Shown here one piece after another: positions 49,101 to 62,800 of a DNA stretch of 64,000 bases. The notes under the pieces were generated by a model. That model did no database searches. It was not told the origin of the DNA and saw only the letters and a program-made list of their open reading frames with translations. Position 1 is the first letter of the stretch, and the number at the start of each line of letters is the position of its first letter. The stretch spans positions 89,900,001 to 89,964,000 of the forward strand of contig OX597816.1 in the NCBI GenBank assembly GCA_951406725.2, written 5' to 3'. This DNA is from Octopus vulgaris. Its lineage: Eukaryota. The translations under genes were made by a program, and so were the position numbers.

Positions 49101-52100
49101 TTGGCTTTTCAGCAGGAAAGGCAAAGCATTGCGAAAGACCAATAATAGTAACTACAATACGAGAAGTATTGAATGGCTGAACAAGGGTCAAATCGCCAGA
49201 TTTGGAAGGTTGCCCTCTGAATTTTATGATTAAATGCCAGATTTGTTTGGCAACATCTTGGCAACTGTCTATTGCAAGTGGCAGCAAAATAGAAGCTTTC
49301 TCAATTCTGTGAGGTGGGATGTGTTGATGTTGCTGAGAAAGAACGCCAACAAGCGGGACATTACAGACAATTTCCGTCCCATAACCCTGCTAAATGCAGA
49401 GTTTAAATCTTTGGTCAAGATATTAGCTCAGAAGTTGACGTCTGCCGTCGGTGATTTGGTCAGAGAACTCAAAAGTGTGCGATCCCCAATAGATTTATCT
49501 ACGACAATCTCCACCTTATGCAATACATCATAGAAGGAATGGGTAACAGATCTGGCGTTGGCAGAATCCTGATCAATTCGGATCAGTCGAAATCATTCGA
49601 TAGGGTCGTCAATCGCTACTTGGAAGCAGTCCTAAAATCAGCTGGTTGTGGACCCGTTTTCAGTGGCTTGATTGCAGCAGTACACGGTGCTTGCTCGGTT
49701 ATCAAAGAAAGCGGCCATCTCTTGGAACAGTTTCATATTGCGCTCTCGATCCGTAAGGAGTGCCCTCTCTCATTTCTAGTCTGGCTTGGCCCAGACCTCC
49801 AGATGGATTGGAACAGCTTCACACCGAACTGAGATGAGAGGAAACTATTCCTGGAAAATCGATCATGGTTAGCTAATACCTAAATTATCTCTGTAAAAGC
49901 ACTGCTGCTCTTCCCTTTGGCGGGGCTGCAGTCCTGAGCCAAGAAAAGAGTAAGATTAGGCGCCTGTCACCTGGAATGTCATCAGGTGCTCATTGCCCTT
50001 TACCAGTTGGGCAACGCGGTCGGTAGAAGTTCTATGTCAGCAATATATAAAGACCCAGAGGGAGTAAGATCCATGATCTCCTCGGGGAACTCTGGGTGTC
50101 GACGAGGATGAAGTAGCTGGTCTGTGCCGGAGGAGTATTGCCGGTTGAGATGAACTCTACAGGCAGTTGGTGCAATGAAAATTTTAATATCATATAACAA
50201 ATGCTTAAGCTAACAGCTTTTGTGTATTTTTAAATAGCCAATATGTGTCTTCCACGTTGCAGTCGTTTCAGTTGCAATACACGGTCTCGCATCAAATCAC
50301 TTGCCTGGCAAATACACTTCCGAAATTTATTTAATAAATAAGCTGTAATATGTGTCTCATTTGATTTCTTCACTTCGCTGATATCAAATGAAAAAGGGGT
50401 TCATAGTTATTAAAATAGATCCATTAGCCGCCTAATATACAAAATAAAAGAACACAAAATTAAAATAAATGTTAAATTATGAAATTGTGGCAGGGATAGG
50501 TAATCATCCGAGACTACATTGGCAATAGAATTTCACCCTTTAATATTGAAGTAGTAGTAGTAGTAGTAGTAGTAGTAGTAGTAGTAGTAGTAGTAGTAGT
50601 AGTAGTAGTAGTAGTAGTAAATTCTAAGACTACCTTCTCCTTTCATCCAAAGGTCGAAATAGCTGGGAAAATCTCCGTTGTATTCAAACACTTTAGCCCC
50701 CATCAAATGTCTGTAGAACGTCACCGCCATGGCTTTCGGATTGCGGTTTAGAAAGATAATTTTGTGATCCTTTAGTAATTCCGGGGGTAGAAATTTAGCA
50801 GGTAGGTGTGCACTCAAGAGCCGAGGTGACTTAGCTGATTCCAGATTTTCTATTGGCACCCAATCTAATAGCAAGTCTTCCTTCACAAGAGGAATCCTTT
50901 CACTGCTTCCTCTCAGTATCATACTAGTCAATTCAAACAACCAATGTGAACCTGAAATTTGATATAAAACCTTTAATATTTATACTTTAATAATAAAAAA
51001 AAGGTGCATATTAATTAGTTTAATTTATGAACGTGTTACAAAAACAATGCAATGATTAAAATCTAAAATGTTAAGAGAATTCTAATAAGTTCCGAATTTA
51101 ATATATATTCATCTAAATGAGATTTCCATGTCTCATTTATTATTAAAGACACAAGCACACGCTTCAATCACAAAGCTAATTTTTATTCACTGTGACCTCT
51201 CTCTCTCTCTCTCTCTCTCTCTCTCTCTCTCTCTCTCTCTCTGTCTCTCTCTCCTGTACAGGCGCCTTCAAGTGGTGCTTGTACAACCACAGGTCTTCTT
51301 CTTGAAAGACAATTCGTCACGTCCCTGGCAAGCAACGTGTGGCACCTTAAAGATGAAGGAACCCCATACGATATTAAGTGGAGGATCATAGAGCGGCTGG
51401 GATCCTATATCAAGAAGAGCAGATGCTGCAAACTTTGCATAGCGGAGCTAGCAAGGATCCTCAAAGACACTCGATATTCAGAATTACTATTAAATTCCGG
51501 ACATGAAATTTATAGCCCCTACCTCCATTTCAAACGCTAATTGTTGCAAGGATGGGATACCCAATTCATCGATCAGAACAGTAAAATCTCCTTACGGGCT
51601 AGAAGCAACCTAAGTGCGGAGGTTCCCCATTCGCCATTTTAGCCCGTATGGACTGCCATCTGAACTGAACTAAGAGATATAACTTGCCCTAGCCGACCCA
51701 AAATGGTTGGTCTTTGTGCACTAATTATGTGTGTGTGCGCGCGCGTGTGTGTGCATAAATGTACAATATATAGGAAGGATCTGAGGGAATAATTCCAAGG
51801 TAGCCAAATGTTGCTTAAGTATCCTAGGAAACAATGGACACACTTGTGTGGGATTTGAATCCGGGGACAAGCAAGACGTATTTAGGAGAAAATAGGAAAA
51901 ATAAATAAAGGAGACAAACGCTCAAGAAGTTATTAAATCATTTATATCTTCATATCTTCTACACATGTTTCGATGGATACATCCAAAATACGTCCGACTG
52001 GATGAATAATGGTCAGCTATGCATCAATCTCTTCAGGGAGAATATAAATAACAGTTCTCATCAAATAGACATTTTAACGGATATATCTGTTAAAATGTCT

Positions 52101-61100: not shown

Positions 61101-62800
61101 ATATATGTATATATATATATATATATATATATATATATATATATATATATATATATATATATGTGTGTGTGTGTGTATATATATATATATATATATATAT
61201 ATATATATATATATATATATATATATATATATATATATATATATATATATATATATATATATATATATATATATATATATATATATATATATATATATAT
61301 ATTGTTATATTTCGGAATGGTCATATTGCCAGTTTAGCCAATAAAAATCTTGCACAACAAATATTTAAACGTATATATATATATATACGCGAGAAAGAAG
61401 CAACAAGAATGGATAAGTTTTTAGTACAATCGTTTCATACAAAGACAGGCTTTATTAAAAGTTACAAAAATTGCAGCATATAAACGTGTCCGTACTCATC
61501 AGCTAAAATACATGTGAGTTCTCTAGACATCTTAGTGGTTGAGGCTATACTCATGAAGTAATGTAGATAATTAAGTAACATAAACAGATTTCCAAAGTTC
61601 ATTAAAGTTCTTTAAAGATGCACAGTCTTATCACAGATTTTTTAAAAAGTTTTAATAGCATCACAGAGAAGGTGACTTAATCCATAGTGTACATATGAAT
61701 TTCCAGAGATATGTACACTATGGATTAAGTCACCTTCTCTGTGATGCTATTAAAACTTTTTTAAAAATCTGTGATAAGACTGTGCATCTTTAAAGAACTT
61801 TAATGAACTTTGGAAATCTGTTTATGTTACTTAATTATCTACATTACTTCATGAGTATAGCCTCAACCACTAAGATGTCTAGAGAACTCACATGTATTTT
61901 AGCTGATGAGTACGGGACACGTTTATATGCTGCAATTTTTGCAACTTTTAATAAAGCCTGTCTTTGTATGAAACGATTGTACTAAAAACTTATCCATTCT
62001 TGTTGCTTCTTTCTCGCTTATAATCACCCCACATTACTGTATGGTTAAAACCGTATAGTTTTTGGTGCATCTAAGTTAAGTACCATATTCAAGTAAATTC
62101 ATTAAAATTGACTTGAATCTTTATTGCTTTTTGTTATATATATATATATATATATATATATATATATATGTATATATATATATATATATATATATATATA
62201 TATATATATATATATATATATATATATATATATATTAGGGGCCGAAACTGGACGTGGTTCGTCCTGATTATGTCTTTAGCCCCTGGATCCTATAAAGGAG
62301 CTGTTGAGGTCGCGAACCACGAAACGTGGTTGGAATTCCTCAAATAAAGTTCAGCACAACACTTAGTAAATCCATAGACCAAAACATGTATTCGAAGTTG
62401 GAACTTTTTGAACGTATTTTTCCTCTTTATTAATACGAAATAGACAGATTAAGTACGATTCTATAATTAAATTTTTAATTACGATTACTATGATGCTATA
62501 TATGGAATAAATTATCCTCCTTACAAGAGTTTAAAGGAATGAAGCAATTAAATTAACACTGGTGTAATAATATTTTCTTATAATACAATATTGTCAAAGC
62601 TTACCTGCTCCGGGATATGAATACATCAAAATATCATCAGATCTAATTTTTACTGTATTCAGTTTAGGTAAAGCAGTTGCAGCTATTTCTAAATAAAGAA
62701 TATTGTATCCTTTATATTGATAAACAGGCAAAGGCTTCCCGTCTTTGCCGAAAAATTGTTTAAAATTAATTCCGGTTTCTTTTATTTCTTCAGAAGCCAT
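46042..62800 (-). CDS. SULT-fold gene C, complete 5-exon CDS (62605-62800, 50634-50951, 48756-48853, 48223-48400, 46042-46148), 298 aa
   Basis: Exon lengths 196+318+98+178+107=897 nt with compatible phases and GT-AG sites. SULT motifs [54 protein letters not shown]. Confidence 0.9.
46168..47026. repeat. Long (TA)n/(GA)n compound microsatellite in gene C intron 4
   Basis: Direct observation. Confidence 0.95.
48223..48400 (-). CDS. SULT-like gene C exon 4
   Basis: caatag|[15 protein letters not shown]...CSFDKMK...TLYHS G|gtacgt; 178 nt. Confidence 0.9.
48756..48853 (-). CDS. SULT-like gene C exon 3
   Basis: ttttcag|[33 protein letters not shown]|gtaatg; 98 nt. Confidence 0.9.
49190..50150 (+). 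mobile_element. L1/Tx1-like LINE reverse transcriptase relic
   Basis: [33 protein letters not shown]; frameshifted. The 3' part resembles 41060-41220. Confidence 0.8.
50634..50951 (-). CDS. SULT-like gene C exon 2
   Basis: tttcag|GT TCA CAT TGG ... MKGE G|gtagtc; 318 nt. Confidence 0.92.
51260..51545 (+). mobile_element. Penelope-like GIY-YIG C-terminal fragment
   Basis: [18 protein letters not shown]...CKLCIAE...LLNSGHEI, similar to 34650-34830. Confidence 0.7.
51956..52040 (-). ncRNA. Type I hammerhead motif, left arm of 384-bp palindrome
   Basis: ctcc-CTGAAGA-gattgat...atccatc-GAAAC-atgt-GTA-gaag; one stem I mismatch. Confidence 0.65.
52127..52211 (+). ncRNA. Type I hammerhead motif, right arm of 384-bp palindrome
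   Basis: cttc-CTGAAGA-gattgat...atccatc-GAAAC-atgt-GTA-gaag. Confidence 0.75.
52676..53152. repeat. About 123-bp direct repeats with a 354-bp period
   Basis: tatatagcggtggtgta...ttctaat at 52676 and 53030. Confidence 0.85.
52883..52928 (+). ncRNA. Degenerate hammerhead motif (core C3 to A)
   Basis: cctgga-ATGATGA-cggg..ccca-GAAAC-atgcat-GTC-ttcagg; palindromic ACATGCATGT. Confidence 0.55.
53241..53291 (-). ncRNA. Type I hammerhead motif at left end of 5.4-kb inverted repeat (sense to gene C)
   Basis: Reverse complement of 58566-58616. Confidence 0.7.
58566..58616 (+). ncRNA. Type I hammerhead motif at right end of 5.4-kb inverted repeat
   Basis: agcttc-CTGAAGA-tttctcttgaat-GAAAC-ag..ct-GTA-gaagct; stem II closed by U-U. 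Confidence 0.7.
60435..60642. repeat. Foldback palindrome of SINE B segment centred on (CA)n(TA)n(TG)n
   Basis: atgttatggggacg... / ...cgtccccataacat. Confidence 0.9.
60943..61028 (-). ncRNA. Type I hammerhead ribozyme motif (sense in gene C intron 1)
   Basis: attttc-CTGAAGA-gaaggctgcaaa...tttgcagccttc-GAAAC-atat-GTA-gaaaat: 6-bp stem I, 12-bp stem II, palindromic ACATATGT stem III. Confidence 0.85.
61419..61508 (-). ncRNA. Type I hammerhead motif, left arm of palindrome (sense to gene C)
   Basis: Near-exact reverse complement of 61897-61987. Confidence 0.8.
61897..61987 (+). ncRNA. Type I hammerhead motif, right arm of palindrome
   Basis: ttttag-CTGATGA-gtac...gtat-GAAAC-gatt-GTA-ctaaaa. 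Confidence 0.8.
62605..62800 (-). CDS. SULT-like gene C exon 1 (coding)
   Basis: ATG at 62800, MASEEIKE...[15 protein letters not shown]|gtaagc. Confidence 0.9.

Follow-up and report, generated by a model that had tools for sequence, protein, structure and literature searches.

The stretch of DNA analysed here (the window) comprises 64,000 nucleotides of Octopus vulgaris contig OX597816.1, positions 89,900,001 to 89,964,000. It holds three tandem sulfotransferase paralogs, as located by tblastn, the last of which, gene C, is a minus-strand cytosolic sulfotransferase whose second exon matches Pfam Sulfotransfer_1 (E 1e-11). The first intron of gene C contains ten type I hammerhead ribozyme motifs. 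Probably, the seven insertions that carry these motifs are truncated 3' ends of Penelope-like elements (PLEs), of differing age and lodged at (TA)n tracts. In this reading the mirror-image twins of some motifs arose by insertion, and the whole collection is passive debris that regulates nothing. The parts of gene C that matter here are:

62605..62990, minus strand: first exon; coding part 62800-62605, with the 5' untranslated region (UTR) before it; contigs of probable RNA runs span 62603-62990, and paralogous exons are found by tblastn
50952..62604, minus strand: intron 1, 11653 nt, mostly repeat insertions strung along (TA)n tracts
50641..50951, minus strand: second exon (translated part), with the Pfam match; loose RNA-contig ends match 50920-50949

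The intron has a donor GT at 62604 and an acceptor AG at 50952. In contigs from three of three probable RNA runs, each from a different study, the exon is left at 62603 and the letters of 50920-50949 follow. These joins confirm the GT-AG intron and mean that spliced transcripts exist. The RNA status of the runs is an automated guess, hence "probable", and contigs give no transcript level. One contig starts at 62956 and two extend just beyond 62990, which fits a first exon. None covers the intronic part of the query stretch, so the contigs have no bearing on intronic RNA.

Our strict scanner for type I hammerheads requires the exact core, GAAAC, a GTH triplet and minimum pairing in stems I and II. 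It calls eight of the ten motifs, and the ten fall into seven repeat families, termed A to G, where a first-pass annotation of the window had counted about five. "Sense" below refers to the gene C transcript.

51954..52042, minus strand: hammerhead A (sense), predicted from scanner and folding to be hairpin-locked; exact-core call at 51960-52036 (-)
52125..52213, plus strand: hammerhead A twin (antisense); exact-core call at 52131-52207 (+)
52520..52626, minus strand: hammerhead G (sense, unshielded), with palindromic stem III and GUU triplet, from scanner and relatives; strict call at 52526-52620 (-)
52883..52928, plus strand: hammerhead E (antisense), predicted inactive, with core C3 changed to A
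53241..53291, minus strand: hammerhead C twin (sense), with 4-bp stem III and U.U at the stem II base; its complementary arm lies ~5.3 kb upstream in the transcript; exact-core call at 53247-53285 (-)
58566..58616, plus strand: hammerhead C of the main element (antisense); exact-core call at 58572-58610 (+)
60943..61028, minus strand: hammerhead D (sense, unshielded), with intact core, 6-bp stem I, 12-bp stem II and 2-bp palindromic stem III; exact-core call at 60949-61022 (-)
61419..61508, minus strand: hammerhead B twin (sense), predicted from scanner and folding to be hairpin-locked; exact-core call at 61425-61502 (-)
61897..61987, plus strand: hammerhead B of the main element (antisense); exact-core call at 61903-61981 (+)

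The first-pass annotation had proposed at least eight type I motifs, and all eight were located, seven with an exact core and the eighth, E, with the change at C3. It had overlooked the strict motif G. It had also listed a weaker motif near 59805-59950, which proves to be a genuine member of family F at 59810-59945 (-). This motif retains the two core halves and a palindromic stem III. Its stem I, however, is only 3 bp, the base of its stem II is mismatched, and neither scanner setting calls it. Thus, the eight strict motifs have the CUGANGA and GAAA core, the NUH triplet and stems I-III of a type I hammerhead, whereas E departs from this structure at C3 (52889-52922 (+), one core mismatch) and F at the stem II base. 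Six of the ten motifs are in transcript sense, and three of those six have a twin. The first-pass annotation had named four sense motifs, three of them twinned.

Among relatives elsewhere in the genome, the core is intact in 29/29 for B, 28/28 for C, 14/14 for D and 14/14 for E, and it is decaying in A, G and F. Rfam gives no hits at gathering score in the window, and no hammerhead family appears among the best 150 of 267 rows at E values up to 10. The combination of long stems II and short stems III probably places these motifs outside the Rfam models.

Every motif sits in a dispersed repeat, and most repeat ends abut (TA)n. The insertions that carry the motifs, with the number of genomic candidates at first look, are:

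51752..52275, both strands: family A insertion; main copy and tail on the minus strand (52085 to 51752), inverted twin on the plus strand (52082-52275) ending in (TA)n; arms 91% identical; 375 candidates
52330..52670, minus strand: family G insertion; 3' end at a (TA)n tract in common with A; no twin; 1034 candidates, best others 85-91%
52676..53152, plus strand: family E insertion; 354-bp unit followed by 123 bp that repeat its start, in partial tandem; ends in (TA)n in common with C; 1744 candidates
53222..58700, both strands: family C insertion; inverted arm 53222-54983, last endonuclease codons ~54984-55065, then a microsatellite-like 3' region, the pseudo-long terminal repeat (pLTR), a ~60-nt tail and (TA)n; 1263 candidates
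59440..59990, minus strand: family F insertion, with the weak hammerhead 59810-59945 (sense, unshielded); 240 candidates, best others 83-91%
60760..61090, minus strand: family D insertion; (TA)-rich on both sides; no twin; 2717 candidates; endonuclease traces upstream in longer copies
61384..62135, both strands: family B insertion; main copy and ~118-nt tail on the plus strand (61705-62135), twin on the minus strand (61700 to 61384); (TA)n at both outer ends; arms 98.7% identical; 2433 candidates

Four main elements are in sense and three are antisense, so there is no strand bias. For B, C and D, most of the copies displayed run into (TA)n. The ends of the insertions in the intron lie within (TA)n tracts, where a target-site duplication would be indistinguishable. 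The best other copies are 98-99% identical for C and 83-91% identical for A, F and G, a spread which indicates that the insertions accumulated over a long period. The B and C insertions are 96-99% identical to dispersed copies; judged from this identity, both appear to be very young, and their families may be active in retrotransposition. The loci used for each family, 12-28 in number, are the top-scoring matches of its search after the window copies and three near-duplicates had been dropped; they are not a random sample.

Long copies of two families carry coding sequence upstream of the motif. The long family B copies have 2.2-3.4 kb of upstream sequence in common, and one of them has a 690-amino-acid open frame with reverse transcriptase (RT) motifs, an Asn-rich stretch, a linker with four Cys and a GIY-YIG-type end. 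The Asn-rich stretch lies between RT and endonuclease (L062:2514-4583 (-)). For family C, the sampled locus L107 has an RT frame, and L109 and L111 have an endonuclease frame; positions 54984-55065 of the window correspond to the last codons of this endonuclease frame. RT-type motifs of both families were read by eye in the open frames of the long copies. The B and C endonuclease frames align with each other and with an old fragment in the intron, termed family H. Searches of ESM Atlas return look-alikes of the B and C frames at 0.92-0.98, in clusters with RVT_1 (11% of members) and GIY-YIG (18-23%; scores 0.95-0.96), which we treat as leads only. Family D has endonuclease traces upstream, in sense, in 4/14 loci, three of which share upstream sequence. 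The RT and GIY-YIG-type frames in long B and C copies, together with the endonuclease traces of D, identify these families as Penelope-like elements.

Endonuclease-bearing PLEs (Penelope/Poseidon, Neptune and Nematis; PMC8557442, PMC3846280, PMC11167929) resemble the octopus elements in having RT followed by a C-terminal GIY-YIG-type frame and a hammerhead near the 3' end; in the families studied here it lies in the pLTR, near the 3' end. Both groups show 5' truncation, head-to-head inverted copies, a tail at one end and (TA)n targets. Rotifer PLEs (PMC3846280) have an Asn-rich stretch like that of family B. Four Cys directly precede the endonuclease in B and C, with a spacing unlike the Neptune notation in PMC8557442. 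The octopus elements differ in their tails, which are ~60-140 nt rather than 30-40, in the ~3.3-kb microsatellite-like 3' region of family C, and in the stacking of seven families within one intron. PLE activity is already on record in O. vulgaris (PMC13282606), in a text that, as far as it is accessible, does not mention ribozymes.

The motifs themselves point the same way. The first-pass annotation had compared them with the minimal hammerheads of PLEs that have a palindromic stem III, and both the motif structures and the repeat families bear this out. Metazoan PLE minimal type I hammerheads (Cervera and de la Pena 2014, PMC4209133) have the same core, a long stem II and a 2-bp palindromic stem III, and they occur mostly as single dispersed copies, with pairs on opposite strands 100-700 bp apart. 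Family C departs from them in its 4-bp stem III, short stem II and U.U base. Molluscs are not mentioned in the accessible text of PMC4209133.

Self-BLAST confirms the four inverted repeats proposed in the first-pass annotation. They lie at 51892-52275 (91%), 53222-54983/56829-58635 (88% overall, 98.5% at the pLTR ends), 60435-60642 (a fold-back resembling a short interspersed element, or SINE) and 61183-62235. In the PLE families, the inverted copy lacks the tail and stops at a fixed pLTR end, which is position 303 of the query for B, 272-275 for C and 209 for D. For B, the inverted copy ends at position 303 in 14/28 other loci and the main copy continues for ~118 nt to (TA)n; an inverted pLTR piece ends at 298-303 in 5/7 long B copies. 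An inverted 5'-truncated copy, a one-sided tail and a (TA)n bias are described for endonuclease-bearing PLEs (PMC8557442), as are head-to-head junction palindromes (PMC3846280). In a lizard PLE, two internal RT start sites explain an optional tail, and the hammerhead cleaves only with the element's protein (PMC11167929). Given the fixed inversion ends and this published layout, the big 53222-58635 repeat is one insertion with no separate duplication, and each twin, as read from sequence, belongs to the same insertion as its main copy. The main element is antisense in both B and C, and thus the inversion created their sense motif.

Complex PLE structures do trouble assemblies (PMC8557442), and the arms of the SINE-like fold-back are identical at 88/88 letters. 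That the hairpins are assembly artefacts from fold-back reads is nevertheless the least credible of the alternatives considered here, because the two arms diverge by 1.3-9% in A, B and C, and because each family has its own inversion end points, which recur at many unrelated loci.

Twins are common in some of these families elsewhere in the genome. Within 1.5 kb, a complete inverted hammerhead is present in 11/28 loci of B, 4/14 of D, 3/14 of G, 1/14 of E, 1/27 of A, 1/28 of C and 0/12 of F, or 21/137 when families are pooled. Any inverted piece is found in 16/28 (B), 11/27 (A), 7/14 (G), 5/14 (D), 2/14 (E), 1/28 (C) and 1/12 (F). Among longer C loci chosen for long matches, 3/6 have an inverted pLTR piece.

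These rates bear on a proposal of the first-pass annotation, that selection favours insertions whose ribozyme is neutralized by an inverted copy. Sense hammerheads would harm their hosts, and insertions locked by an inverted copy would survive more often in introns. Three of the seven insertions in the intron are twinned, where 1.3-1.8 are expected, and retrozymes are somewhat depleted from Xenopus introns (10.64898/2026.07.22.740005). However, the probability of such an excess is 0.11-0.26 by family rates and 0.08 by the pooled rate, and twins are equally common at unselected loci of unknown gene context. The inversion in B and C places a sense motif into an otherwise antisense element. Three sense motifs (D, G and F) lack a twin, one of them, D, being young and intact. 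The main elements, at 4:3, show no strand bias. We therefore regard selection of this kind as improbable, although a weak filter may act on insertions.

For a comparison of motif density with the genome background, as the first-pass annotation had proposed, we used 93 evenly placed 10-kb stretches (929.9 kb) of the 2.80-Gb, 227-contig genome. These contain 24 strict motifs, with a maximum of two per stretch; the 24 include four weakly paired ones from one doubtful family. The intron holds eight strict motifs, 27-fold more than the 0.30 expected for its 11.65 kb. With each twin pair counted as one, there are five strict insertion events against 0.28 expected, an 18-fold excess. Shuffling the intron 50 times yields 0.02 strict motifs on average and never more than one, and shuffling 73 genomic stretches yields none. 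Inverted repeats are ~4-fold above background, with 3 passing the filter compared with 58 in the 93 stretches; at least three occur in 5/93 stretches. A regional effect was rejected, since the 80-kb flanks contain no strict motifs and the other 52 kb of the window contain two.

Strict motifs are linked to TA tracts, as 22 of the 24 background motifs lie within the 56/93 stretches that have at least four such tracts (P = 0.0007). Tracts number ~20 per 10 kb in the intron, compared with 5.4 on average, and many of those in the intron lie within the family C insertion. Insertions also share tracts, one being common to A and G and another to E and C. The cluster is real and dense, and its parts belong to a known kind, but the density of this intron is only partly explained. 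Possible causes are reuse of enlarged tracts, open chromatin near the promoter, relaxed constraint in a redundant paralog, and a scan that picks out an extreme.

Several observations weigh against reading the intron as PLE debris accumulated at TA tracts. Tract density fails as the whole cause of the cluster, as TA-rich background predicts 0.46 motifs and not eight, and the 12 stretches with at least 10 TA tracts hold only three motifs. The TA link may also be partly circular, because insertions may themselves enlarge tracts. Under a Poisson model (five events against 0.28), ~2.5 such windows are expected genome-wide. Eight homologous introns of sulfotransferase paralogs hold five strict motifs in 38.4 kb where 1.0 is expected (P = 0.004, or 0.05 without the doubtful family), so first introns may be favoured for another reason. 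The somewhat higher frequency of twins noted above belongs here as well. With regard to identity, searches of Pfam (apart from one sub-threshold unrelated hit) and of the Protein Data Bank (PDB) do not recognize the PLE proteins. A coding link was found in 0/14 loci for G and nowhere upstream in 14 loci for E, and A and F have only unshared coding traces. A, E, F and G may be non-autonomous.

The PLE reading suggests the following course of events. The element's endonuclease would nick AT-rich DNA, and reverse transcription would begin at either of two sites, the pLTR end or the tail end, and stop early. A second, inverted cDNA would often be attached at the 5' junction in head-to-head orientation. 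The tracts that persist on either side of the insertion, plus TA-rich sequence inside family C, could then serve as new targets. In the pre-mRNA, the antisense arm would be made first, so that A, B and probably C would be held in long duplexes, predicted to be ADAR substrates that are unable to cleave. D, G and F would be free, yet by analogy their 2-bp stems III belong to a class that needs a dimer partner or a PLE protein. The only well-matched partners in the intron would be A (for D) and B (for G), both of them locked.

Folding predictions agree with this outline. From the coordinates, the head-to-head geometry places the antisense arm first in transcription in A, B and C. A forced hammerhead fold costs 125 kcal/mol in A and 134 kcal/mol in B, and the 274-nt arms of C form a duplex of -478 kcal/mol. 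The earlier suggestion that the three twinned sense motifs could be sequestered in hairpins is therefore upheld by prediction. For the free motifs, the hammerhead fold exceeds the local minimum by 3-5 kcal/mol. Stem III of D pairs fully with A and that of G with B, whereas D-G, D-F and G-F pairs have 1-2 central mismatches; heterodimers between free sense motifs were set aside for this poor pairing.

The first-pass annotation had proposed that hairpin folding or A-to-I editing competes with the ribozyme fold and thereby gates co-transcriptional cleavage of gene C. The duplexes are indeed long and near-perfect, hyper-editing in octopus is very high (PMC5625713), and the C arms, which are 1.8-5.3 kb apart, possibly pair more slowly. 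However, with the antisense arm made before the sense arm in all three cases and a penalty of ~130 kcal/mol, no close competition is predicted. Editing would presumably also strike the A-rich catalytic core. In addition, B and C are very young, and 5/8 of the homologous paralog introns contain no strict motif. We therefore consider such a switch very unlikely, although more credible than an assembly artefact. The regulatory reading has no support beyond the presence of the motifs. On general grounds, the hairpins are likely to be edited (PMC5625713).

Cleavage that serves no evolved function is a different matter. Unshielded D (or G) might cut some pre-mRNAs, alone or with a partner or a PLE protein, and so lower the output of gene C. 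Hammerhead D is the best candidate for real cleavage according to these predictions, given its intact core (as in 14/14 relatives), 6-bp stem I and 12-bp stem II, and a fold that exceeds the local minimum by only 3.1 kcal/mol. Efficient monomer cleavage is reported for some retrozyme hammerheads whose stem III is short (PMC7229834), and an intronic ribozyme lowers Cpeb3 output in mouse (PMC10919898). Minimal PLE motifs with a 2-bp stem III, however, show no detectable cleavage as monomers and low cleavage as dimers (PMC4209133), or depend on protein (PMC11167929), and the mismatched stem III pairs leave the free motifs with poor partners. Spliced transcripts are also present in three studies, though contigs give no level. 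We judge incidental cleavage to be unlikely, about on a par with, or marginally less probable than, the selection filter discussed above.

Two other classes of ribozyme-bearing sequences can be compared. Metazoan non-LTR (long terminal repeat) retrozymes (PMC7229834; 10.64898/2026.07.22.740005) resemble family E, whose 354-bp unit is in partial tandem with a compact hammerhead. The motif number extrapolated for octopus (46,000-108,000) is on the order of axolotl's 126,000. Unlike retrozymes, which have at least two tandem units each with a hammerhead, no copy in the intron has two tandem hammerheads. Family E has ~1.35 units and one broken motif, and B, C and D are tied to coding PLEs. A retrozyme-like array does occur in the sample at L113:2099-4721, where a 359-nt unit with hammerhead core halves is in tandem, five copies one way and two inverted.

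The HDV-like (hepatitis delta virus-like) intronic ribozyme of CPEB3 (PMC10919898) shares with the octopus motifs a self-cleaving motif in sense inside a host intron, the octopus ones being putative. CPEB3-type ribozymes are single-copy and conserved at one place. In gene C, all motifs are dispersed repeats, young to middle-aged, that are mostly predicted to be locked or dimer-dependent, and strict motifs are absent from 5/8 paralog introns. The conserved amniote intronic hammerheads are likewise single-copy host ribozymes.

Two further repeats in the intron lack a hammerhead:

51255..51722, plus strand: family H, an old PLE fragment with the C-terminal GIY-YIG-type endonuclease part and 3' UTR, aligning to the B and C endonuclease ends; 281 candidates, best others 75-78%
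60435..60642, both strands: fold-back round a microsatellite, formed by a portion of a highly abundant SINE-like repeat; no hammerhead; 80 BLAST hits of the repeat in 73 sampled stretches

The hammerhead-bearing end of family H is missing here and present in relatives. Within family C, the ~3.3-kb microsatellite-like (CA/TA/TG) sequence between frame and pLTR (55065-58360) is common to copies L106-L111; the start of a unique island within it (55395-55600) also forms fold-back arms in L323. An abundant repeat at 58955-59240 (+), with 3651 candidates, has at 59066-59105 hammerhead core halves in reversed order, 13-16 nt apart, as does a subfamily only ~69% identical. A type II hammerhead was considered here and rejected because the sequence offers no stem I. 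The interval 62236-62345 is a very abundant repeat, with huge contig depth in a DNA-sized run, and has degenerate hammerhead-like halves. Another abundant repeat (L120, L123, L142, L309 and G000:C3:79.44-79.48 Mb) gives weakly paired strict calls with a 93-nt stem II region; these are perhaps false calls, or the repeat may represent a further hammerhead family.

Two further strict hammerheads, at 24248-24325 (+) and 28706-28767 (+), lie in the homologous intron of the adjacent paralog. Both are antisense, and the first is related to family B at 74% identity. Six more sulfotransferase paralogs form a second cluster ~10 Mb away (G000:C3:79.43-79.56 Mb). In the cofactor-binding loop, the paralogs (62605-62620 plus 50940-50951 in gene C; 7994, 30284 and G000:C3:79.43-79.56 Mb) have YPGA, YPGT or YPAA followed by GSHW. 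This loop in sulfotransferases usually has a lysine.

The background extrapolates to ~72,000 hammerhead motifs genome-wide (46,000-108,000). Exceptional potential for double-stranded RNA and exceptional hyper-editing are reported for octopus, with the source repeat unnamed in the accessible text (PMC5625713). Among independent inverted repeats of at least 95% identity in our sample, 7/10 show by eye a hammerhead trace, a one-sided tail or both. It is conceivable, though we hold this only tentatively, that near-perfect long hairpins in this genome come mainly from Penelope insertions in head-to-head form, which would then also be a main feed for hyper-editing. With its antisense arm always made first, each such insertion would disarm its own ribozyme, which would let tens of thousands of hammerheads pile up in introns, this intron being an extreme. 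Our literature search, which covered openly accessible papers, found no paper on octopus PLE hammerheads, and the accessible text of the 2026 O. vulgaris repeat annotation mentions neither hammerhead nor ribozyme.

In its present form the finding is one of annotation: a single intron has accumulated several Penelope-like families, some young and some old, whose layout is already published. The 46,000-108,000 hammerheads extrapolated for the genome are of a kind invisible to Rfam at gathering score in this window, and most of the near-perfect long hairpins in a small sample resemble Penelope fold-backs. The intron is also a compact test set, in which locked and free motifs of several families are present in one pre-mRNA.

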